Shown: positions 1-11,224 of the stretch, piece after piece | How the letters are laid out: each line of letters opens with the position of its first letter | Numbering within the stretch: position 1 is the stretch's first letter | Assembly: GCA_022573485.1 (NCBI GenBank) | Contig: JACZTW010000003.1 | Span: 1 to 34,703 of the forward strand | Length of the DNA: 34,703 bases | Direction of reading: 5' to 3' | Origin: Planctomycetota bacterium | GTDB lineage: Bacteria > Planctomycetota > Phycisphaerae > UBA1845 > CAIVHJ01 | Program-made: the position numbers and the translations under genes | The notes under the pieces: model-generated | Seen by the model: only the letters and a program-made list of their open reading frames with translations | What the model was told of the DNA's origin: nothing | Databases searched by the model: none

Positions 1-57
1 GCGGATTGCGATAAAGTAGATCCCGCTGAAGGTCGCTCGCCGGCCTTCCCACTCGCA

Positions 58-99
58 GCCGGAGTGGCGGAATTGGCAGACGCGCGGGATTCAAAATCC
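58..99 (+). repeat. 5' fragment of tRNA-Leu(CAA), 42-bp exact direct repeat of 2088-2129; putative attL core
   Basis: GCCGGAGTGGCGGAATTGGCAGACGCGCGGGATTCAAAATCC is identical at 58-99 and 2088-2129. Identity starts exactly at tRNA nt 1 and stops just after the anticodon loop. Confidence 0.93.
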
Positions 100-267
100 A
101 AGAAAATCATTGAGACACAAGGAGTTATGATCGTTTCTACTCCGTATCTTCCCTTATCTTCCGCAGCTTTTTGATAGTCGGAGTTTACGGAATCTAGGCA
201 TCAAAGAGCACCATATCGAAGTGGTCGCCATTGCGCCGACGAGATGAAATGCTTTGGTGGTCGCGCT

Positions 268-297
268 TTGACATTCCTCCCCTCGCTCCTCTATTCT
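268..297 (+). promoter_or_regulatory. sigma70-like promoter for the cargo gene
   Basis: TTGACA (268-273), 18-nt spacer, TATTCT (292-297), upstream of the ATG at 416. Confidence 0.55.
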
Positions 298-415
298 TGG
301 ACTATTACCTGTTCACCTTCTGTATGCTGCGACCGACACCACTTGCGAAGTAACCCCGCGTCCGACCTGGGGCGTTGACCAATGGTTTTTCATGTGATAA
401 TGTGAGTGCCGAACG

Positions 416-1909
416 ATGTCAAGGATCTTGCTCATTCTCGCAGCTGTCTGGCTTTCGGGAGATCCGGAACGTGCTTCTGGCGACCTCAGTGCAGAACAGC
501 TTGCTGAACATGTGGAAGTCATTAGCGGCGGATTCACCGGCGGTGATCGGGCCTACGTTCGTGTTGGTGATCATGTGTTCTTCGACGAGAGGCGCCGTGG
601 GCCACAACTGGCCGGCTTGTATGTTGTGGCAATCCACGGAAACAAGATCCTGCAGCAATTCCACTACAACACGTACGCGGTGCCTGGCGCCAGCGAAGGA
701 CTGGCCCGGGACATCGATTCGTTTCCTGATGGCACGCTGGTGATCGTTGCCGCCAAGGACGAAGCAACTCGCTTATTCGATCGCCGCGGACAGGAGGCCC
801 TGAAGCAGATCGGTGCCCAAACCGGCTTACTCGGTCAGCCCCCGCGCGGATCGTATTTGTGTATCGGCGTGAAAGGGATGGCTCCCGGCGAAGCCCGCGA
901 GCAATACGGAGACAAGAGGCAACAGTTTCGAGGGGCAAGAGCCGCCCATGCCGCCAACCTGGCTCCGTTGGAGGAACCTGCCCCACCGAAGATCTCAAGC
1001 ACATCAGGCGCTCACGTCCTGCATGTTGGCATTGACGTGTTTTATTACATTCCCCAAAACTTCGACCCGATGACCGCGGAGTACCTTGTTTGCATTCACG
1101 GGGCCGGCGATTGGCATCACATCGGTGCCGAAGCCAACATCAAGCGCTTCCAGTCCACCGCAGACAACAACAACCTGGTCCTCATCGCCCCGGCTTTCGA
1201 TTGCCTGCTCAATTGGCCGTTCAACCGCAAAAAGGACTACAGGAATCACAAATTCACTGATCCGAAAATCATCAAGGATTGGCACTATCACGATTTCATT
1301 GCTTTGCTGAATCGCCATACTGACAAGAGAAGCGATCTGAAGGTCCTTGAGGTGTTCCGACTGTTCAATGATCAGTTGATGAAACGTGATCAGTTCCATC
1401 TATATGGACACTCGGGGGGCGCCCAGTTCGTCAATCGTTTTGTCACCTTCCATCCTGAGCTGGTGGGCAAAGTGGCTTTATCCGCGGCAGGCAGCTTCAC
1501 TTTCCCGCAAAGATCCAAGGACTACCCATGGGGCCTGCGAACCAGAAACCTCAAGAAGTTCTTCGGTGAACAGATTGATACGAGTGGCATTCGATTGTCA
1601 TCGAGCGAGCTAGATGAAAAACTCGGGAGATTGCTTGATAGGCAGCTCTTCATCATCGTTGGAGAAGAGGACCCAACGGTGGTCAATACGGATTGCCCCT
1701 GGCAAGGATCCAACACGCTCGAACGTTCGCGTAACTACGTCGAGGCCATGCGGGACGAACACCAACGCCAGGTGCGGCGAGGAATGCGTCCACTGGACGA
1801 TCCGTTTCGGTTCGAACTGCATGCGCTTCCCGGCGTCGGGCATGATTCCGCTACCGGTGCATCCAAAGCCATCGAGTTGCTGTTTCCGTCGGAAGAAAAG
1901 AAACCGTGA
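416..1909 (+). CDS. Secreted protein: ILEI/PANDER-like domain fused to alpha/beta-hydrolase (esterase-like)
   Basis: Signal-peptide-like N-terminus. ILEI-like segment GLYVVAI...GTLVIVAAKDEA...ALKQIGA...RGSYLCIGVKG. Hydrolase motifs HGAG, GHSGG (1406-1420), VGEED and GVGH. Confidence 0.8.
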   Translation: MSRILLILAAVWLSGDPERASGDLSAEQLAEHVEVISGGFTGGDRAYVRVGDHVFFDERRRGPQLAGLYVVAIHGNKILQQFHYNTYAVPGASEGLARDIDSFPDGTLVIVAAKDEATRLFDRRGQEALKQIGAQTGLLGQPPRGSYLCIGVKGMAPGEAREQYGDKRQQFRGARAAHAANLAPLEEPAPPKISSTSGAHVLHVGIDVFYYIPQNFDPMTAEYLVCIHGAGDWHHIGAEANIKRFQSTADNNNLVLIAPAFDCLLNWPFNRKKDYRNHKFTDPKIIKDWHYHDFIALLNRHTDKRSDLKVLEVFRLFNDQLMKRDQFHLYGHSGGAQFVNRFVTFHPELVGKVALSAAGSFTFPQRSKDYPWGLRTRNLKKFFGEQIDTSGIRLSSSELDEKLGRLLDRQLFIIVGEEDPTVVNTDCPWQGSNTLERSRNYVEAMRDEHQRQVRRGMRPLDDPFRFELHALPGVGHDSATGASKAIELLFPSEEKKP

Positions 1910-1982
1910 AACTCGGCGCTGCGGAAGACAATGCTGGTCATGCGGTCCGCAAGTCGTCGATTCCGACGTCTCGAGTAAGCCC

Positions 1983-2011
1983 TTGAGTCTGAAGAACTCC
2001 GATGGTACGTT
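1983..2011 (+). promoter_or_regulatory. Candidate sigma70 promoter for tRNA-Leu, inside the element
   Basis: TTGAGT (1983-1988), 17-nt spacer, TACGTT (2006-2011), about 75 nt upstream of the tRNA. Confidence 0.45.
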
Positions 2012-2029
2012 ACTGAAGCTTGGAAGATT

Positions 2030-2069
2030 TGATAGGAAGATCAGGTGGTGCCTATTGATCTTCCTGTCA
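2030..2069. repeat. Inverted repeat upstream of tRNA, built from the ATCTTCC motif
   Basis: TGATAGGAAGATCA (2030-2043) and TGATCTTCCTGTCA (2056-2069) are 13/14 complementary. Confidence 0.75.
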
Positions 2070-2087
2070 GTCTTTGCCACCGAATAC

Positions 2088-2171
2088 GCCGGAGTGGCGG
2101 AATTGGCAGACGCGCGGGATTCAAAATCCCGTTCTCGCAAGAGAGTGTGGGTTCAAGTCCCTCCTCCGGCA
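2088..2171 (+). tRNA. tRNA-Leu(CAA), CCA not encoded
   Basis: Acceptor stem GCCGGAG/CTCCGGC plus discriminator A. D-loop contains TGG. Anticodon arm CGGGA-TTCAAAA-TCCCG, long variable arm TCTCGCAAGAGA, T-loop GTTCAAGTC. Confidence 0.97.
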
Positions 2172-2235
2172 ATGACTTACGTTCAGGGCGTGCCTCGCAA
2201 ACGGCCATTTTCGCAAGAATTTCGCAAATCACAGG

Positions 2236-2366
2236 TCACGCCAGCCTTTGTACCGCGTCCCGCTTCGTGCCGTCGTCGATGTGCTGGTAGTACACCGCCG
2301 TCGTCCGCCCGCATTCGTGTGCGGCCAATCTCTGGACGACCAATTGATTTACACCCATGCGGGCTA
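2236..2366 (-). pseudogene. C-terminal remnant of a tyrosine recombinase/integrase truncated by IS630
   Basis: Translates as LARMGVNQLVVQRLAAHECGRTTAVYYQHIDDGTKRDAVQRLA*, matching the VQxLxGH...TT..Y catalytic tail. It lies next to the tRNA 3' end and ends at the IS630 TA site. Confidence 0.75.
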
Positions 2367-2455
2367 GTGGTCCATTCCGCATGAAGTTGCGGGTATTGGG
2401 GTGAAAGCGTCGATCTTCATGACCGGGATTTGTTCCGAGATCATGGAGGATCGAC

Positions 2456-2902
2456 ATGAAAAGGTACCTGGTTCGGCTGGAGGCCGAGGAACGTGGGCGA
2501 CTGGAGCAACTCGTGCGGGTCGGTAAAGCCGCAGCCTACCGGATTCGTCACGCAAACATTCTGCTGGCGGTGGATGAATCGGAGGCCGGGCCGAAGCTGA
2601 AGGACGCCCAGGCCGCCGAGGCGTTTGGCGTGGCGGTGCGGTCTATCGAGTCGTTGCGGAAACGGGTCGTGGAAGAGGGGCTTGACGCGGCACTGGAGCG
2701 CAAGAAGCAGGTTCGTCCCAGCGTCGAACAAATGTTCGACGGCGAGAAGGAGGCCCAGCTGATCGCGATTGCCTGTGGCGCCAAGCCCGCAGGGCGTGTG
2801 CGCTGGACGTTGGAACTGCTGGCCGAGAAGGTCGTGGCGCTGAAGATCGTGGATCACTGTTCGCCGCAGACGATCATGCGGACGCTTAAAAAAACGAGAT
2901 AA
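2456..2902 (+). CDS. IS630 transposase N-terminal HTH part (orfA)
   Basis: RBS GGAGG. Motifs RIRHANILL, DGEKEAQLIAIAC and GRVRWTLELLA are typical of IS630. Ends at an A7 slippery run. Confidence 0.9.
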   Translation: MKRYLVRLEAEERGRLEQLVRVGKAAAYRIRHANILLAVDESEAGPKLKDAQAAEAFGVAVRSIESLRKRVVEEGLDAALERKKQVRPSVEQMFDGEKEAQLIAIACGAKPAGRVRWTLELLAEKVVALKIVDHCSPQTIMRTLKKTR

Positions 2903-3594
2903 AGCCGTGGCAGCATAAGATGTGGTGCATTCCGCCGAAGTGCAACGCCGAGTTTGTCTGCGCCATGGAGAACGTGCTGGCCGTTTACACGCGGCCGTAC
3001 GACGCCAATCATCCGGTGGTGTGCTTCGACGAAAAGAGCAAGCAACTGGTCGGGGAGGTCTGCAAGCCGATCCCGGCGGCGCCGGGACGGGCCGAGTGCC
3101 ACGACTACGAATACGTCCGCAACGGCACGGCGAACCTGTTCCTGCTGGTCGAACCGTTGCGTGGCTGGCGACAGGTGGACGTGACGACGCGGCGGACCAA
3201 GCTCGACTTCGCGAAACAGATGAAGGAACTCGTCGATGTCCACTACCCCGATGCCGCGAAGATTACGCTGCTGATGGACAACCTGAACACGCATCGGTTG
3301 TCGTGCCTGTACGAGGCCTTTGCGCCGACCGAGGCGCGCCGGTTGATCGAGAAGACCGAGGTGGTGCACACGCCCAAGCACGGCAGTTGGCTGAACCTGG
3401 CTGAGTGCGAGCTCAGCGTGCTGGAGAAACAATGCCTCGGTGAACGCATCGCTGACCAGGCGACCTTGCGGAGGCGAATGCAGGTGTGGAATGACAATCG
3501 AAACAGCCGGTCCAAGAATATCGACGGGCAATTCCGAACAGCCGATGCACGGATCAAGCTAAGAAGGCGCTACCCGCAGACTGAAATGGAATGA
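2888..3594 (+). CDS. IS630 transposase DDE part (orfB), reached by -1 frameshift at A7 (2888-2894)
   Basis: The -1 frame reads KNEIKPWQHKMWCIP. DDE motifs CFDEK, MDNLNTH and TPKHGSWLNLAECE are present. The first ATG in frame is 2920. Confidence 0.88.
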
Positions 3595-3601
3595 ACCACT
3601 A

Positions 3602-5116
3602 GTCGTCCCTGAAAAACACGTCAAACGGCTGTGACTGTAGCGTGCCATGGGGTTTCTGGTGGAGATACTCGTGGTATCCTTTGCAAGGTAGTTACGGATG
3701 ACGAACGAAAACCTTGCAATTTCGGCCACGACATGGAGGCTCTATGAAGCCCAAACCGCAGCCCGGCGACGCGTTCGAACTGTTCCAATCCCATTTCGAT
3801 CAGTTGCTCAATCCCGACCATGAGTTGGTGCTTGTGGCCAAGAAGATAAACTGGCCTGGGCTGGAGGCGGCGTTTGCCGATTGCTACTGCCCGGACATCG
3901 GCGCACCGGCAAAGGCTGTTCGCCTGCTGGTGGGCTTGCATTATCTCAAATACGCTTTCAGCGAATCGGACGAATCGGTCGTGGCGCGCTGGGTCGAGAA
4001 TCCCTACTGGCAATACTTTTGCGGCTACACGCACATGCAGCACGACTGTCCGATCCATCCGACCAGCATGACCAAGTGGCGGAATCGGGTCGGTGCCGAG
4101 CGGCTGGAGCAACTCCTCGCCGAAACGATTGCCCTGGCTGTTCGTGAGAAACACCTGCCCCAAAACGATCTTCAGCGTGTCACGGTGGACACGACGGTGC
4201 AGGAGAAAAACATCACTTTTCCCACCGACTCGAAGCTGTTGTACAAGGCCATTGTCCAACTTGGCGACGCGGCGAAAGCGCGCGGTATTCCGCTTCGACA
4301 GTCGTACGTCCGGGTGGGCAAGCGGGCGGCGGTCAAAGCCGGTCGTTACGCTCACGCCAAGCAGTTCAAACGCATGCAGCGGCGACTCCACAAGCTGCGC
4401 ACCTATGTGGGCCGACTGATTCGCGACATTCGCCGTAAGACGACGGACCTGGATGAGGGGCTGGCCACCTTGCTGGAGGGTGCGGAGCGGATTCGTTGCC
4501 AACAACCCAAAGACGCCAAGAAGCTCTACAGTTTGCACGAGCCGGAAGTGCCGTGCATCAGCAAGGGCAAAGCCCGCCAGCGTTACGAGTTTGGTCAGAA
4601 GGTGGGGTTGGCCACCACGAATCGCAGCAACTGGATCGTAGCGGCCCACCTCCTTCCAAACAATCCGTACGACGGCCACACGCTCACGGCCACGTTGACC
4701 GCGGTCGAGCAGATCACGGGAGTGGCACTGACGGATGCGTATGTTGATAAAGGCTATCGCGGTCATGGCTACACCGGCGGCGTAACGGTTCACATTGCCG
4801 GGCAGCGTCAGAAGAACGGGACACGCGCCGAACGAAATCGGAGGCGCCGGCGCAGCGCGATCGAACCGAAGATCGGCCACCTCAAGAGCGATCATCGCAT
4901 GGACCGGTGCTTCCTGGCCAGGCTTGCCGGCGATGCGATCAACGCCGTGCTCGCCGCCGCCGGGTCCAACCTGCGAAAGCTGCTGGGATTGTTCGGTAGC
5001 CAGAGGCGGCGGTTGGTTCTTGCGCTGATTCGCTGGCTCGAACACCTGAACGGTGGCCGCCCATTCTACTGGCTCAGTTATCTCGCCGCCGCGTAGACGG
5101 CTTTTTCAGGGACGAC
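3602..5116 (+). mobile_element. IS5-family insertion sequence
   Basis: Perfect 15-bp terminal inverted repeat GTCGTCCCTGAAAAA (3602-3616) / TTTTTCAGGGACGAC (5102-5116) encloses the transposase. Confidence 0.9.
3744..5096 (+). CDS. IS5-family transposase
   Basis: GGAGG precedes ATG 3744. N-terminal WVENPYWQYFCG motif. DDE motifs VDTTVQEK, VDKGYRG and RSAIEPKIGHLK, plus SKGKARQRYEFG. Confidence 0.93.
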   Translation: MKPKPQPGDAFELFQSHFDQLLNPDHELVLVAKKINWPGLEAAFADCYCPDIGAPAKAVRLLVGLHYLKYAFSESDESVVARWVENPYWQYFCGYTHMQHDCPIHPTSMTKWRNRVGAERLEQLLAETIALAVREKHLPQNDLQRVTVDTTVQEKNITFPTDSKLLYKAIVQLGDAAKARGIPLRQSYVRVGKRAAVKAGRYAHAKQFKRMQRRLHKLRTYVGRLIRDIRRKTTDLDEGLATLLEGAERIRCQQPKDAKKLYSLHEPEVPCISKGKARQRYEFGQKVGLATTNRSNWIVAAHLLPNNPYDGHTLTATLTAVEQITGVALTDAYVDKGYRGHGYTGGVTVHIAGQRQKNGTRAERNRRRRRSAIEPKIGHLKSDHRMDRCFLARLAGDAINAVLAAAGSNLRKLLGLFGSQRRRLVLALIRWLEHLNGGRPFYWLSYLAAA

Positions 5117-5971: not shown

Positions 5972-8900
5972 TCAAGGAATGCCCAGCCCGGTAAGGCATT
6001 GGATGTCGGCTGCAGGGTCTGCCAACCACAGATCGGAATGGCCGTCGGCGGTGATGTCGCCGAATCTCACGGCCTGACCGGTGTCCTGTCCGCTCAGCAA
6101 GGCCATATCAAAGTCGTTGTCCGTGTCTGAGTACCGCAGGGGCGGACCGTTCGAACTGATCGGGCCGAACAAAACGTACGCATCGCCCGTGCCGTAGTTG
6201 CCGACGATCAGGTCGAGATCCCCGTCACCATCGAGATCGCCCAACGCCGTCGCGTGGCCTAGAATCCCTATGCTCACGGTTCGCGTATTGATGATCTCCA
6301 CGATGCCGTTGCGCGTGATCGGACCGCTGGTATTGATCGTCGGCGGAATGATCCGCACGGCGTTCTCGCCCGGCAATCCCACGATGACGTCGTCGAAGGT
6401 GCCGGCGCTGCTGGTGAAAGGACCGCTGACGATGTCTCCCGGCAAGCCGTCGCTGCCGAGCATGTCCGTCGATCCCGCGTATGTGTACTGGATCGCGGGC
6501 TGGGCGCTCAGGCTCCCTTCCGCACCGGGGAATAAGAACAGCCCTCCCGTGGTCGTGCCTGCCCCAGCAGTCGCCACCCAGAGATCCATCGGCCCGCCGT
6601 CGAAGTTGCCCACGCCCAGCGAGGCGCCGAAAAATTCGTCGCTGCCGGCCGTGCCGTTGAGCGCCACTCCGTTACTCCCGGCGACAGCGACCGTGAGCGG
6701 CCCCGACGGCGGCAAGTTGTTGGCCGGGAGCGTGCTGGGCCGGCCGTAGATCACGTAGACAGCGCCCTCATCGTTGCTGACACCGTCTTCGTCCTCGCCG
6801 GGGGCGCTGACCGCCAAATCGTCAATGCCGTCTGCCGTAAAATCCGCGACAGCCACGTCGGCGTGCAGGCCTTCGCCGGTGGTCGCATTCTGTGTGCCGC
6901 GAGTCGTGTAGGTGCGCAGCGAGGCGCCGTCGGCCGGATCGGGACCGCCCGACAGCAGCAGCACGTAAACGTGGGACACCGTGTTGGCCGAGGCAGTATT
7001 GCTCACCACCGCGATGTCCCGATGGCCGTCGCCGTTGAAATCACCGGAGCCGATGGCGACGATTCTCTCGTCAGGACCGTTGGCAGGCAGGATGATCGCG
7101 GTGCCGATCCCCGGCGTGAAGCTATTCACCGGGGAGCTCCAATCGCCGTTGACAGCCTCGGGACCGCCATTCGCATCTGCACCGGCGGTCAGCAAGTGCG
7201 GGGCGCCGAACATGATGTGGATTACCGGGGACAGGCCCGGTGTGTTGGCAGCTCCGATCGTGCAAACGTCGCCATAGCCGTCGCCGTCAAAGTCTTCCCC
7301 CACGATCGTCTTCCTCTGGGCCACGCCCGGGCCCGTACGCCGGAAAGTATCGCCGTTACCCACGCCCACGCCGGGATGCACGACCTTGTTGGCTTCGAAC
7401 GGCTGAACTCCCGTTCCCGCCGTAAGAGCCCTCGGCTCTCCCACCTCCAAGTCCAGATTGATGAACGGCGGCTCAGCCGCCTCCACGCCGGCCTCACCAT
7501 TCACCTGCGGGTTGAGTGGGGCATCCGGCGCGTTGCCGATGTACAGCACTACCGCGCCCGACACCGGATTCGTGGGATCGGTGAGCGCCCTATTGCCGGT
7601 CACCGTGCTGCCAATGGCTTGATTCGTACCCAGCAACACCGTTGCCGCACCGACGCCCAGTTCAGTCGTGTCGATGGTGATGGTGGTGTCGATATCCTCG
7701 CCGGGCGACACTTGGACTTGCCCGAGCAAAACCACGTTGTCTGAGGGCGGCAGTCCGCTGGGCCGTGAGTAGACATTGATGAGCGTCATCAAGGTCGTGG
7801 TGTATCGGATCGGCAAAGTAAGACTGGCTCCGGGCTCAATGTAGTAGCGGGTTCGAGCGCCCGGTTGGAGTAAGACTTCCGGAGGCTCAAGCAGACCCCA
7901 GCACCCCAGCATCAGGGCCAAGTCGAACGCACCCACCGCGCCGTCTTCGTCGAAATCCGCGGGATGGCCGGGGTTCGGACCCCACGCACCGAGCAACTCT
8001 GCCAAATCCGGAGCATTGATCACGCCGTCTTGAGTCAGGTCTACCGGCAGGCAGGGATTCTCGCATTCATCCGGGACGCCGCTGCCGTCTTCGTCCGGAC
8101 TCGTGCCGTCGGCGATGTCGCACTCGTCGGGCACTTCGTTTTCGTTGCAGTCCGGGCTTCCGCCGTCGGCAATATCGCAGGAATCGTCGTTATCGTTGCC
8201 GTTGCAGTCGGTAATCACGCCCGGCTGGCACGTGCCATCGACTGGCGCGCAGAATTCGACGCCGTTGCACGCATCGCCGTCGCTGCACACGATGCCCTCA
8301 TTGACGCATCCCACGCTCGGATCGCAGGTGTCGTCCGTACAAGCGTTGAGGTCATCACAGTCCAGCGGCGTACCCGCCTGACAGGTTCCGCCAACGCACA
8401 ACTCGTCACCGTTGCACACATCGCCGTCGTCGCAGGAATTGGCATCGTTGGGCGTATTCACGCAGCCGTCCAGCGAATCGCAAATGTCGTCCGTGCAGGG
8501 ATTGAGGTCGTCGCAATCCAGTAGCGCACCTGCCTGGCAGATTCCGCCAACGCAGGTCTCGGCACCGTTGCAGACATCTCCGTCGTCGCAGGAGTTGAGA
8601 TCGTTGGGCGTATTGACACAGCCGCCCAGCGGATCACAGGCGTCATCCGTACAGGGATTAGCGTCGTCGCAATCCAGCGGCGTGCCCGCCTGACAGATCC
8701 CGCTAACACAGGCCTCGTCACCGTTGCAGACATTGCCGTCGTCGCAGGAGTTGGTATCGTTGGGCGTGTGGACGCAGCCGGCTACCGCATCGCAGGCGTC
8801 ATCCGTACAGGAATTAGCGTCGTCACAATCGGGCGGCGTACCCCCCTGACAGATCCCGCCCAGGCAGGTCTCGTCACCGTTGCAGACATCGCCGTCATCG

Positions 8901-11224
8901 CAGGAGTTGGTATCGTTGGGCGTGTTCACGCAACCGACCAGTGGATCGCAACCGTCGGCCGTGCAGGGATTAGCGTCGTCGCAATCCAGCGGCGTACCTG
9001 CCTGACAGATCCCGCCGACGCACAGCTCGTCACCGTTGCAGACATCGCCGTCGTCGCAGGACGCTCGGGCAGGCTGATCGGTACAGTCAAACCCCGGGCT
9101 GGTGCAACGCGGATCGGCGCAGCCCACCGGGTTGTCACCTTCGCCATCACCACAGCAGAACCGATTGTTAGGATTGCCGCTTTGCAGGCCGTTGCAATCC
9201 TCCGGACAGGACAGGCAATCCTCCCCATCGCCGATCTCGCAGACGCCGTTGCCACAGCTTGCACCAGCGACGGGATCGTTCACGCAGCCAATCGCAGGGT
9301 CGCACGCGTCCGTCGTACAGGCGTTGGCGTCGTCGCAATCGAGCGGCGTGCCCGCCTGACACGTCCCGCCCACGCACAGCTCGTTGCCGTTGCAGGCATC
9401 GCCGTCGTCACAGGAATTGGCATCGTTGGGCGTATTCACGCAACCACCCAGCGGATCGCAACCGTCATCCGTACAGGGATTGAGGTCATCACAGTCCAGC
9501 AGCGTACCCGCCTGACAAGCCCCGCCCACGCACAGCTCAGCGCCGTTGCACACATCGCCGTCGTCGCAGGAGTTGGCATCGTTGGGCGTGTTCACGCAAC
9601 CAGCCAGCGGATCGCAACCGTCATCCGTACAGGGATTGAGGTCATCGCAGTCCAGCGGCGTACCCACCTGACAGGCCCCGCCCATGCACAGCTCGTTGCC
9701 GTTGCAGGCATCGCCGTCGTCGCAGTTGGAATCTGCAGGCGTGAACTGGCAATCGTTCAGGGGATCACACGTATCTTCCGTGCAGCTTACACCATCATCG
9801 CAATTGGCATCATTCGCGATCGACGTGCAATCGTTGACTGGATCACAGATGTCGTCCGTGCATGCCACGCCGTCGTCGCAGATCGTGTCGTAGGGTACAT
9901 TCTGGCAATCGTTTGTAAGGTCACAGAAATCCGTAGTGCATTCGACGCCGTCGTCACACAGGCTGTGGTGCGGCAGATGCAAGCAACCAACCAACGGATT
10001 GCAGCTGTCCGCAGTGCAGCCCACCTCGTCGACACAGTTGGCGTGATTGGGCGTGTTGACGCAGCCGATGGCAGAATCACAAGTATCATCGGTACACGGG
10101 ATCCCGTCGTCGCAAAGCGAAAGATCGACGGGCTCGTTGACGCAACCGGAATTCGGATCACACGTGTCGTTCGTGCAGATATCGGCGTCATCGCACGTCG
10201 CAGGATCGATCTGGGTAATCACGCATTCGCCCGCAATCGGTTCACAGAAATCGCTGGTGCAGAAATTGAGGTCATCACAATCGCTCGATGTCATGCAGAA
10301 GCAGAAAACCGTGATTTCGTCAACGAAGATGTGGGAATTCGTTTCACGAATCTTGAACGTGGTCGTCGCCAGCCCGTCGGGGACGGATGAAAACAAGGCG
10401 AAATCGACGGTGCCCCGTGATGGGCCGGTGCTGACGAACGCAGCCAGAATCTCCGACTCCGTGATCACATAGTCGATACCATCATTTCCCGAAATGAAGA
10501 TCACGGGATCATCATTGGAGAAGTCAATCTGGTTCAAGCCAAGGAGAATCTTGTCCGCGCGCACCGGGCCATCGAAGGTGAAGATGACTTCCTCATCTTT
10601 GGCGTTTCCCTGGCCATCGATTCCCAATCCGCCGATGCCGCAGTCTGTGCGGCGAACACCCGTGCCATCGAGAGTCAGCACAACGGAGCCGGGATTACCG
10701 GGGGCATTGGGATCAGTCGGGCTGCCGGTGGCGACGCTGGTTCTCGCCGTCAGGACCACAGAAGCGGCCTGGCCTTCGCTGTTCTGGGGGCGATAAACAT
10801 CTTGACAGACGCTTCCCTGGGCAGAATCCGTCAAAACGACCGACTCAAGGATGCACGGCACAGGCTGGTTGCAGACCCCATCGAGACATGCTTCATCGCC
10901 GGGACAGACGACAGGAGTGTGGACACAAGAGAAGTCGATGCAACTATCGATGGTGCAGCCATCGCCGTCGTCGCATTCCGCGGCGCCCCCGCAGCCGACA
11001 CCCGCAGCCGAACGTCTCTGTGTGCCGGCGACATCGTGCGGTGCTACAAGCGACGAGGAATAATCCGATGGAGACCAATCGCGAGGCCGGTCCACTGAAA
11101 CGCGTGGTAACCATGCTGGCAGGAGCACCATGCTCTGCAACTGACCGACTGCAGACGGCAATCTGAGCAGCGTTTGAACTCCGAGGAGCGCCAACGCCAA
11201 TGTGAGGACCGCCCACTTATTCAC
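5972..11224 (-). CDS. Large secreted/surface protein: Cys-rich CDDGxxCTxDxC repeats, DCNxN Ca-binding-like repeats, internal dockerin-like pair, C-terminal FG-GAP propeller
   Basis: 1750-aa ORF with GTG start and hydrophobic N-terminus. FG-GAP motifs include GDFNGDGHRDIAV, ADFTADGIDDLAVSAPG...GAVYVIYG and GDLDGDGDLDLIVG. Confidence 0.9.
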   Translation of the reverse strand: MNKWAVLTLALALLGVQTLLRLPSAVGQLQSMVLLPAWLPRVSVDRPRDWSPSDYSSSLVAPHDVAGTQRRSAAGVGCGGAAECDDGDGCTIDSCIDFSCVHTPVVCPGDEACLDGVCNQPVPCILESVVLTDSAQGSVCQDVYRPQNSEGQAASVVLTARTSVATGSPTDPNAPGNPGSVVLTLDGTGVRRTDCGIGGLGIDGQGNAKDEEVIFTFDGPVRADKILLGLNQIDFSNDDPVIFISGNDGIDYVITESEILAAFVSTGPSRGTVDFALFSSVPDGLATTTFKIRETNSHIFVDEITVFCFCMTSSDCDDLNFCTSDFCEPIAGECVITQIDPATCDDADICTNDTCDPNSGCVNEPVDLSLCDDGIPCTDDTCDSAIGCVNTPNHANCVDEVGCTADSCNPLVGCLHLPHHSLCDDGVECTTDFCDLTNDCQNVPYDTICDDGVACTDDICDPVNDCTSIANDANCDDGVSCTEDTCDPLNDCQFTPADSNCDDGDACNGNELCMGGACQVGTPLDCDDLNPCTDDGCDPLAGCVNTPNDANSCDDGDVCNGAELCVGGACQAGTLLDCDDLNPCTDDGCDPLGGCVNTPNDANSCDDGDACNGNELCVGGTCQAGTPLDCDDANACTTDACDPAIGCVNDPVAGASCGNGVCEIGDGEDCLSCPEDCNGLQSGNPNNRFCCGDGEGDNPVGCADPRCTSPGFDCTDQPARASCDDGDVCNGDELCVGGICQAGTPLDCDDANPCTADGCDPLVGCVNTPNDTNSCDDGDVCNGDETCLGGICQGGTPPDCDDANSCTDDACDAVAGCVHTPNDTNSCDDGNVCNGDEACVSGICQAGTPLDCDDANPCTDDACDPLGGCVNTPNDLNSCDDGDVCNGAETCVGGICQAGALLDCDDLNPCTDDICDSLDGCVNTPNDANSCDDGDVCNGDELCVGGTCQAGTPLDCDDLNACTDDTCDPSVGCVNEGIVCSDGDACNGVEFCAPVDGTCQPGVITDCNGNDNDDSCDIADGGSPDCNENEVPDECDIADGTSPDEDGSGVPDECENPCLPVDLTQDGVINAPDLAELLGAWGPNPGHPADFDEDGAVGAFDLALMLGCWGLLEPPEVLLQPGARTRYYIEPGASLTLPIRYTTTLMTLINVYSRPSGLPPSDNVVLLGQVQVSPGEDIDTTITIDTTELGVGAATVLLGTNQAIGSTVTGNRALTDPTNPVSGAVVLYIGNAPDAPLNPQVNGEAGVEAAEPPFINLDLEVGEPRALTAGTGVQPFEANKVVHPGVGVGNGDTFRRTGPGVAQRKTIVGEDFDGDGYGDVCTIGAANTPGLSPVIHIMFGAPHLLTAGADANGGPEAVNGDWSSPVNSFTPGIGTAIILPANGPDERIVAIGSGDFNGDGHRDIAVVSNTASANTVSHVYVLLLSGGPDPADGASLRTYTTRGTQNATTGEGLHADVAVADFTADGIDDLAVSAPGEDEDGVSNDEGAVYVIYGRPSTLPANNLPPSGPLTVAVAGSNGVALNGTAGSDEFFGASLGVGNFDGGPMDLWVATAGAGTTTGGLFLFPGAEGSLSAQPAIQYTYAGSTDMLGSDGLPGDIVSGPFTSSAGTFDDVIVGLPGENAVRIIPPTINTSGPITRNGIVEIINTRTVSIGILGHATALGDLDGDGDLDLIVGNYGTGDAYVLFGPISSNGPPLRYSDTDNDFDMALLSGQDTGQAVRFGDITADGHSDLWLADPAADIQCLTGLGIP
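8290..9724 (-). repeat. Intragenic 156-bp (52-aa) tandem repeat, about 8 units in blocks of 3 and 5
   Basis: Unit CDDGDxCNGxExCVGGxCQAGTPLDCDDxNPCTDDxCDPLxGCVNTPNDxNS, interrupted at about 9059-9260 by a different Cys-rich module. Confidence 0.88.

Follow-up and report, generated by a model that had tools for sequence, protein, structure and literature searches.

A 2-kb integrase-less cassette on the 5' side of a planctomycete tRNA-Leu gene, probably derived from elements that enter tRNA genes from upstream

A tRNA-Leu 5' half is repeated around a single gene

We examined a 34,703-nt stretch of DNA from a Planctomycetota bacterium (NCBI GenBank assembly GCA_022573485.1, contig JACZTW010000003.1), hereafter the window, which is one entire contig (G000:C235) of a metagenome-assembled genome (MAG) of 345 contigs and 81% completeness. 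ARAGORN detects a sole tRNA gene in the window, tRNA-Leu(CAA), and this is also the only CAA tRNA found in the MAG. A repeat search of the window returned an exact 42-nt direct repeat in which 58-99 equals 2088-2129, with both copies on the + strand at a spacing of 2030 bp. The repeat corresponds to nt 1-42 of tRNA-Leu(CAA): its start coincides with tRNA nt 1 (base 57 is A and base 2087 is C), and it ends three nt beyond the anticodon loop. The anticodon of this tRNA occupies nt 35-37 in a 7-nt loop (33-39) closed by the stem 28-32/40-44, and the repeat thus includes the 5' stem strand, the loop and three bases of the 3' strand. It ends in the anticodon stem-loop, a recognized crossover sublocation of tRNA genes, and chance is far too unlikely to account for identity at 42 of 42 positions. 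A reading made earlier from the sequence alone (the sequence-only reading) had reported this upstream copy, and both the repeat search and ARAGORN bear it out.

The locus therefore has a 5' fragment upstream of an intact tRNA gene in the same orientation, which is the upstream configuration of a tRNA-borne island, and we refer to the 2030-bp unit as the cassette (Table 1). One long open reading frame (ORF) lies between the repeat copies (416-1909, +), and the cassette has a GC content of 53-56% compared with 56-65% over the remaining contig. An upstream tRNA island is expected to carry its integrase gene inside the element, and here there is none: Pfam gives no recombinase signal, and tblastn with integrases of two families, described below as G060-type and G274-type, finds none in 100-2087. 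The earlier statement that the copies enclose one cargo gene and no recombinase was thus confirmed.

Table 1. Features around the tRNA-Leu(CAA) gene of the window and the basis of each call
Feature	Position	Strand	Basis
Presumed native DNA upstream of the original tRNA-Leu(CAA), any native promoter included; 57 nt on the contig	1-57	+	No resemblance to the consensus right arm of the family
Displaced 5' stub of tRNA-Leu(CAA), nt 1-42; core of the left attachment site (attL)	58-99	+	Exact repeat; no ARAGORN call
Left arm; blocks AGTTATGATCGTTT (124-137) and TTTTTGATAG (168-177), ATCTTCC at 146-152 and 156-162	100-215	+	Homology to other left ends
Promoter-like site TTGACA-18-TATTCT ahead of the cargo gene	268-297	+	Consensus scan, 10/12 positions
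Cargo gene, 497-aa protein: ILEI/FAM3-like N-terminal domain, alpha/beta-hydrolase C-terminal domain, hydrophobic N-terminus	416-1909	+	Pfam
Right arm; GGAAGATTTGATAGGAAGATCA (2022-2043) contains TTTGATAG (2028-2035); inverted partial copy at 2050-2066	1990-2087	+	Alignment with integrase-side arms
Intact rebuilt tRNA-Leu(CAA); first 42 nt are the second repeat copy, core of the right attachment site (attR)	2088-2171	+	ARAGORN
C-terminal 42-aa tyrosine integrase remnant (His and Tyr region), facing the tRNA 3' end	2236-2363	-	Stop-to-stop frame; weak PF00589 match, E 0.0056
IS630-like element, two ORFs, 32-nt terminal inverted repeats	2364-3602		
IS5-like element, 21-nt inverted repeats, abuts the IS630-like element	3602-5116		

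The same layout is present in independent sequencing runs

The stub lies only 57 nt from the end of the MAG contig, and this tRNA half is common to many organisms in the same samples, two circumstances that would suit an assembly chimera formed at the tRNA half. We compared the window with Logan contigs (k=31) from four of 24 runs, which come from four studies. These contigs reproduce the layout, with the cassette at the same site in all four runs and 4-16 differences per record. Record 17 of run X2 is unbroken over 28-2116, and record 1 of run X1 covers 1-87 and extends 693 nt further left. Coverage runs from 70 to 2064 in X10 and comprises 70-633 plus 675-2117 in X8, and the junction between stub and left arm is present in three of the four runs (X2, X8 and X10). 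In addition, contig ends of the MAG overlap by 127 nt, which is longer than the 42-nt repeat, and the same junction followed by the arm is also found in unrelated metagenome contigs (see below). A chimera is scarcely credible given these data; the layout of repeat and cassette is not an assembly artefact, the outcome that the sequence-only reading had named as one that would overturn it. The idea that the contig starts at a branch of the assembly graph at 99/100 was likewise ruled out by the 127-nt overlap.

The single-nucleotide polymorphisms (SNPs) between runs are located in the left arm, one of them (148) within an ATCTTCC copy. Most k=31 Logan contigs end about 30 nt into each repeat copy, showing the flanking half-tRNAs, and because they break inside the repeat they do not distinguish an integrated from a circular form.

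The cassette ends resemble the arms of integrase-bearing elements

A DNA search of 279 genomes of the order with 100-2087 matched window 117-181 to a contig of another genome (G274:C64) at 79% identity, and this match likewise follows a 42-nt tRNA-Leu 5' stub, at a locus downstream of rpoN. The search also returned a homologue of the cargo gene in G174 and three further short matches, which were taken as chance. Metagenome contigs contain closer relatives of the left end. By blastn, loci L229 and L285 match window 58-186 at 83% identity and contain the 42-nt Leu-CAA half in exact form, and L241 and L242 are 76-77% identical to the left arm, which in these two follows a Leu-TAA half. These four were the real loci by blastn out of 95 recovered in a metagenome scan with a composite left-arm pattern, the others being chance matches with no blastn support. 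Five other left ends (G274, L229, L285, L241 and L242) are thus homologous to the left arm of the cassette, and each stands directly after a tRNA-Leu 5' half. Their alignment has two conserved blocks, AGTTATGATCGTTT and TTTTTGATAGTC, and the junction AAAATCC/AA (stub/arm) is common to four of five sequences in this five-way comparison. The composite pattern occurs in two of the 279 genomes (G000, the MAG studied here, and G274) with no hit for reversed-pattern controls, and a scan of viral contigs with it gave five loci, none resembling the window.

The right arm was aligned with six arms taken from the integrase side of other elements (G073, G153, G274, G065, G235 and G064). In these the tRNA is preceded by two copies or near copies of TTTGATAG, as in the doubled site GGATTTGATAGGAAGAATTTGATAGTAC of G073 and G153; the first copies in G065 and G064 are TGGATGG/TTGATGG-like. 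The window right arm has the TTTGATAG(GAAGA) site in common with these six arms, and 15 nt of it (GATTTGATAGGAAGA) are identical in G073 and G153. The cassette arms are therefore homologous to those of integrase-bearing members, the right-arm match being short because the tRNA-proximal TTTGATAG copy is missing; its position is occupied by ~45 nt that include the inverted partial copy. Within the 34.7-kb window TTTGATAG occurs exactly twice, once in each arm and both times on the + strand (170-177 and 2028-2035), where 0.22 occurrences are expected and none of 100 shuffles reaches two. Five of the 11 copies of ATCTTCC in the window also fall in the two arms. We predict that these arm motifs are arm-type binding sites. 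The motifs TGCGGAA and CTTATC, considered as common to G060 arms and window arms, proved too frequent for any meaning.

A divergent integrase family lies upstream of tRNA genes

In genome G274, a 431-aa divergent tyrosine recombinase is encoded upstream of an intact tRNA-Leu(TAA) and points away from it. The stub on G274:C64 is 95% identical to the 5' half of this tRNA, which is on a separate contig (G274:C173): stub (L147, 1088-1127, -) and intact gene (L152, 1502-1588) agree at 40 of 42 positions, and one change falls in the anticodon (TAA to TGA). The two changes fit the decay of a dead stub after integration. A profile of 11 G274-type sequences matches the XerC-like structure 4a8e best (E 1.7e-8), followed by IntI4, XerA and XerD, and R277, R373-H374 and Y409 are invariant in all 11, whereas a single sequence scores under the Pfam cut-off (21.6 bits vs 27.1). 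Profile matches and catalytic residues together place the G274-type integrase in the tyrosine recombinase superfamily.

The family occurs in 38 of the 279 genomes. At 24 of the 30 loci fetched, a distance of 63-367 nt separates the integrase start from the 5' end of a tRNA gene located upstream on the other strand; no tRNA is present at the other six, and the usual geometry, in which the integrase lies downstream of the tRNA 3' end, is found at none of the 30. We call the upstream arrangement the mirror geometry. The targets include Leu-TAA, Leu-CAA, Ser, Arg, Thr, Lys and Met tRNAs, with Leu-CAA represented by G065, whose integrase is 61-63% identical, and by G235, which keeps an integrase fragment only. 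In G037, which has a distant member, nt 1-38 of tRNA-Thr recur exactly at a distance of 28.4 kb upstream. Decayed relatives are common, as integrase N-terminal fragments stand beside tRNA-Leu in G235, G064 and L229. At L229, such a remnant (2002-2283, -) and a right-arm-like stretch precede the exact 42-nt Leu-CAA half (2393-2434, +), which is followed by a left arm, an excisionase-like ORF (2546-3424, +) and a 584-aa ORF; this locus looks like an internal junction between two elements in tandem.

Two viral contigs may contain attachment sites of such elements before integration (attP). The 63.8-kb contig L299 encodes a distant family member (2455-3555, +), and 82 nt upstream of that gene's start the other strand carries a 5' half of tRNA-Arg(CCT) (nt 1-40, at 2333-2372, -) that ends at the anticodon loop and is followed by no 3' half. 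This half-tRNA resembles the attP expected of the mirror geometry, a decayed integrated copy being also possible, and the support it lends is indirect because in its catalytic domain the integrase reaches only 27% identity. The second contig, L300, has the 3' part of the same tRNA-Arg(CCT) (nt 34-73, at 1654-1693, +) upstream of a distant-member integrase, so both geometries occur among distant relatives. L299 and L300 thus seem to carry attP sites for one and the same tRNA in opposite geometries.

G060-type integrases use both geometries

The mirror geometry is also found with a second integrase family. In G060, which belongs to another family of the order, a 44-nt copy of tRNA-Leu(CAA) nt 1-44 lies 7.9 kb upstream of the gene, and the interval encodes a tyrosine integrase abutting the tRNA 5' end together with an AAA_25 primase/helicase-type protein, an HTH_17 excisionase-like protein and an HTH_3 protein; G056 carries the same element. 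In G014, an exact copy of nt 1-43 of tRNA-Thr(TGT) lies 11.2 kb upstream and the integrase adjoins the tRNA. Integrases of this type occur in 121 of 201 genomes sampled, and in 27 of the best 30 loci the integrase 3' end is closely followed by a tRNA, with the usual geometry in 22 and the mirror geometry in five. We also observed that the G060 integrase frame (L015, G060:C38, 4251-5891, -) stays open until inside the rebuilt tRNA-Leu(CAA), such that the listed ORF extends ~110 codons beyond the catalytic Tyr into the tRNA 5' half; G056 has the same layout with one TGA within the match.

The repeat boundary is the same within 4 nt in G060, G014, G037, G274, L229, L241 and L242. The sequence-only reading had proposed a site-specific integration at the anticodon loop by an element whose attP carries the tRNA 5' half, and it had suggested looking for further tRNA 5'-half repeats accompanied by an integrase. 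Integrase-bearing elements of this geometry do exist in G060/G056, G014, G037 and G274, stub-bounded ones having been verified in four other genomes, and the arms are homologous, all of which upholds that proposal.

The cargo gene was probably acquired

Pfam recognizes an ILEI domain (PF15711, E 2.4e-11) and an alpha/beta hydrolase domain (PF00561, E 4e-5) in the cargo protein, the latter with a GHSGG nucleophile elbow. A profile of the cargo family matches poly(aspartic acid) hydrolase-1 (E 3.9e-23), the putative PHB depolymerase LpqC, FAM3A/B and the POMGnT1 stem domain. The protein is therefore likely to be secreted and to act as a polymer esterase or amidase, with a domain that binds glycans, as predicted from these domain matches. 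We found 56 homologues in a large protein set, the best non-self one at 69% identity. A full-length homologue occurs in only two of the 279 genomes (G000 itself and G174, at 57%) and in none of the four of the MAG's own family; nine other genomes of the order match in the hydrolase part only. Homologues at six other loci have no tRNA in their flanks, and a scan of JGI (Joint Genome Institute) metagenome contigs with the cargo protein found no relative. This sporadic distribution indicates that the cargo gene is acquired, not ancestral, DNA, which refutes the view of 100-2087 as the ancestral region upstream of the tRNA.

The same data bear on the explanation that the tRNA gene was duplicated in tandem long ago, that the upstream copy then lost the 3' half, and that the hydrolase gene between the copies is normal chromosomal DNA. 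Such a history would agree with our failure to find an empty site and with the presence of the cassette at the same place in all four runs. It is very improbable, since the truncation point coincides with the attachment-site boundary of verified elements, both flanks of the hydrolase gene are homologous to the arms that integrase-bearing elements have in other families and in metagenomes, and the hydrolase gene is absent from all four genomes of the same family.

The promoter-like site ahead of the cargo gene is weak, as the scan gave one site where 1.0 is expected in shuffles, and a terminator scan between cargo gene and tRNA found none. In the alignment, integrase-bearing arms have a TATAAT-like box ~45-50 nt upstream of the tRNA that is absent from the window. 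Transcription of the rebuilt tRNA may start at the cargo promoter or at the native tRNA promoter and read through.

Origin and mobility of the cassette

We consider it likely that the 2030-bp unit is a miniaturized, integrase-less derivative, made by internal deletion and now fixed, that resembles the cis-mobilizable elements (CIMEs) discussed below. Its parents would be a family of integrative elements whose target is the anticodon loop of tRNA-Leu genes, approached from upstream. In intact elements, the gene for the divergent tyrosine recombinase lies 63-367 nt upstream of the tRNA 5' end and points away from it, and the attP would consist of tRNA nt 1 to ~42 between two arms with TTTGATAG-type sites. 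Strand exchange in the 7-nt anticodon loop would leave the host's own 5' half as a dead stub by the native promoter, and at the far end the gene would be rebuilt from the element's 5' half and the host's 3' half. An internal deletion probably then removed the integrase and the other core genes; what is left is a left arm of ~115 nt and a right arm of ~100 nt around one acquired hydrolase gene. The cassette is probably immobile at present and appears fixed in this marine-sediment lineage.

Several observations weigh against this reading. Descent from an autonomous element is favoured by the arm homology, and yet the cassette holds no gene debris, unlike G235, G064 and L229, and consists of two arms and one intact ORF; this unusually clean structure would also fit a selected, mobilizable mini-element. 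No parent element with the same cargo was found in the order-wide DNA search, in the cargo distribution or in the JGI metagenome scan. The right arm lacks the tRNA-proximal TTTGATAG copy that all six aligned integrase-side arms have. No stub was found within 20-40 kb for G155, G025 and G087 (three of the four distant members examined) or for G153 and G064; the contigs of G073, G160 and G235 stop short of that distance. The empty site that the sequence-only reading had hoped to see in related genomes was not found either: a DNA search of 60 relatives with window 1-2240 matched tRNA sequence only, and none of the 60 has the 57-nt flank or the cassette. In favour of the reading, a G274-type integrase was not found in the MAG, whose two G060-type relatives are elsewhere, on C283 (usual geometry, at a tRNA-Ser) and C288. 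The MAG is 81% complete, however, so the cognate integrase may be unassembled.

The main competitor, which is the view taken in the sequence-only reading, is a functional non-autonomous cassette that is, or recently was, excised and re-integrated by an integrase acting in trans from a co-resident or incoming family element. The conserved blocks of both arms and the presence of TTTGATAG on each side in the same orientation speak for it, and tandem arrays such as L229 exist, making accretion with a helper plausible. The clean structure without pseudogene debris and the undecayed repeat, at 42/42 compared with two changes in the G274 stub, also keep trans-mobilization open. On the other side, the contigs of the four runs contain no joints of a circle or empty site, though these k=31 contigs break inside the repeat and miss rare forms. 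The cassette is known from a single site, with no second location among the 279 genomes by DNA search and an empty JGI metagenome protein scan. The absence of a cognate integrase from the MAG, the missing tRNA-proximal arm site and the run-to-run SNPs in the left arm, among them the one that alters an ATCTTCC copy, are further points against activity. Overall, we regard present or recent mobilization in trans as possible but rather unlikely. A broader proposal, that an integrase clade of this order works only in mirror geometry and has spawned mini-cassettes, each of one cargo gene between two arms of ~100 nt, that are exchanged in trans as tRNA-anchored counterparts of integron cassettes, with the window unit as the first seen, strikes us as doubtful.

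A second island occupies the 3' side of the same tRNA gene

Downstream of the rebuilt tRNA-Leu(CAA), the integrase remnant is similar by tblastn to the C-termini of G060-type integrases. It is cut at 2364 by the IS630-like insertion sequence (IS), and most of the downstream integrase gene has given way to the IS630-like and IS5-like elements together. Over the two IS, the contigs of the runs are several-fold deeper than over the cassette, which suggests that they are multi-copy elements. Further along, the window encodes a 1750-aa ORF (5972-11224, -) with many Cys-/Asp-rich 'CDD..C..D.C' repeats and C-terminal repeats that look FG-GAP/VCBS-like by eye.

The other end of this island would lie on a different contig of the MAG. 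An exact copy of tRNA nt 28-84 is found at G000:C24:1379-1435, flanked by small phage-like genes on the left and by chromosomal genes on the other side. The right end of C24 joins C194, and the genes downstream on C24 show no synteny with relatives at their tRNA-Leu(CAA) loci. The other side of the same tRNA-Leu(CAA) is thus occupied by a separate island, one with the usual 3' geometry. Its repeat (nt 28-84) and that of the cassette (nt 1-42) overlap exactly in the anticodon stem-loop, as expected from two integrations via one core site by elements whose attPs carry opposite halves. We also observed a G060-type integrase (L153, 1781-3157, -) on G274:C173 that faces the 3' end of tRNA-Leu(TAA) from downstream, so a tRNA gene occupied on both sides is also seen in another family of the order.

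Comparison with known systems

Williams reportedly described, in 2002, tRNA sublocations and integrases that have the usual 3' geometry with crossover in the anticodon loop. The core at our locus is alike, with 5-bp inverted stems around a 7-nt overlap. The difference is that the attP here would carry the upstream half and not the downstream one; as a result, the element can no longer depend on the native tRNA promoter in the way it did before integration. For ICEAfe1, a requirement for 19 bp of the anticodon loop is quoted in a preprint (10.1101/2020.11.02.365908). As literature searches are weak on 5'-end integration, we do not claim the mirror anticodon-loop geometry as unpublished. The pattern is nonetheless worth recording at the family level: a whole integrase clade in one bacterial order enters tRNA genes from the promoter side, and one anticodon stem-loop lets both sides of a tRNA gene be occupied. 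The 5' stubs left by upstream elements can pass for tRNA pseudogenes, and such elements also decay to very small gene-carrying relics. If small relics of this kind are mobilizable, they would offer a simple route for moving single genes.

The cassette is not a new system, as both of its non-coding ends match the attachment-site arms of integrase-bearing elements in the order and in metagenomes; it extends a rarely documented, known geometry and involves no new mechanism. The sequence-only reading had ranked it as a candidate novel system, a claim that does not stand, because upstream integration and integrase-less elements bounded by attachment sites are already described in portions of the published record (PMC4383910, 10.1101/2020.11.02.365908, PMC5704250). 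The tRNA-gene islands of Islander are alike in that, in the description given in parts of PMC4383910, an intact tRNA and a displaced end fragment in the same orientation mark the two ends, and the configuration filter set out there accepts a 5' fragment upstream of the tRNA gene. The same passages require an integrase inside the candidate. Since the window unit has none, the filter as given there would reject it. Units like the 2-kb cassette escape island finders and annotators, whose usual practice is to search downstream of tRNA genes and to demand an integrase.

The islands at arg2A of Klebsiella are the closest parallel for the geometry. As presented in sections of the preprint (10.1101/2020.11.02.365908), islands with integrases of clade I.d integrate at the 5' end of this tRNA gene, and some strains have one island at each end of it. 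A dedicated upstream integrase clade, a repeat of the 5' portion and islands on both sides are thus common to the two cases. The arg2A repeat, in the same sections (10.1101/2020.11.02.365908), comprises the acceptor stem's 5' half together with the D-stem and D-loop, whereas the repeats here reach the anticodon loop (nt 1-38 to 1-44). Our hosts belong to an order of Planctomycetota, and the window unit is without an integrase.

For the cassette itself, the nearest known class is that of the CIMEs, which portions of PMC5704250 define as elements without integration and transfer genes that have kept attL and attR. The predicted make-up of the window unit agrees with this definition, as it has no recombination genes and appears to retain both attL (stub and left arm) and attR (right arm and tRNA half). 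CIMEs of the streptococcal families of ICEs (integrative and conjugative elements) and IMEs (integrative and mobilizable elements) are also alike in standing beside, or in tandem with, other elements at the same tRNA gene, according to the same parts of that source (PMC5704250). Those described there descend from conjugative elements and are found at the 3' end of the genes they target (PMC5704250), whereas the window unit has the mirrored geometry, its parent family has no recognized conjugation genes in the parts seen, and mobilization of the cassette is a predicted possibility only.

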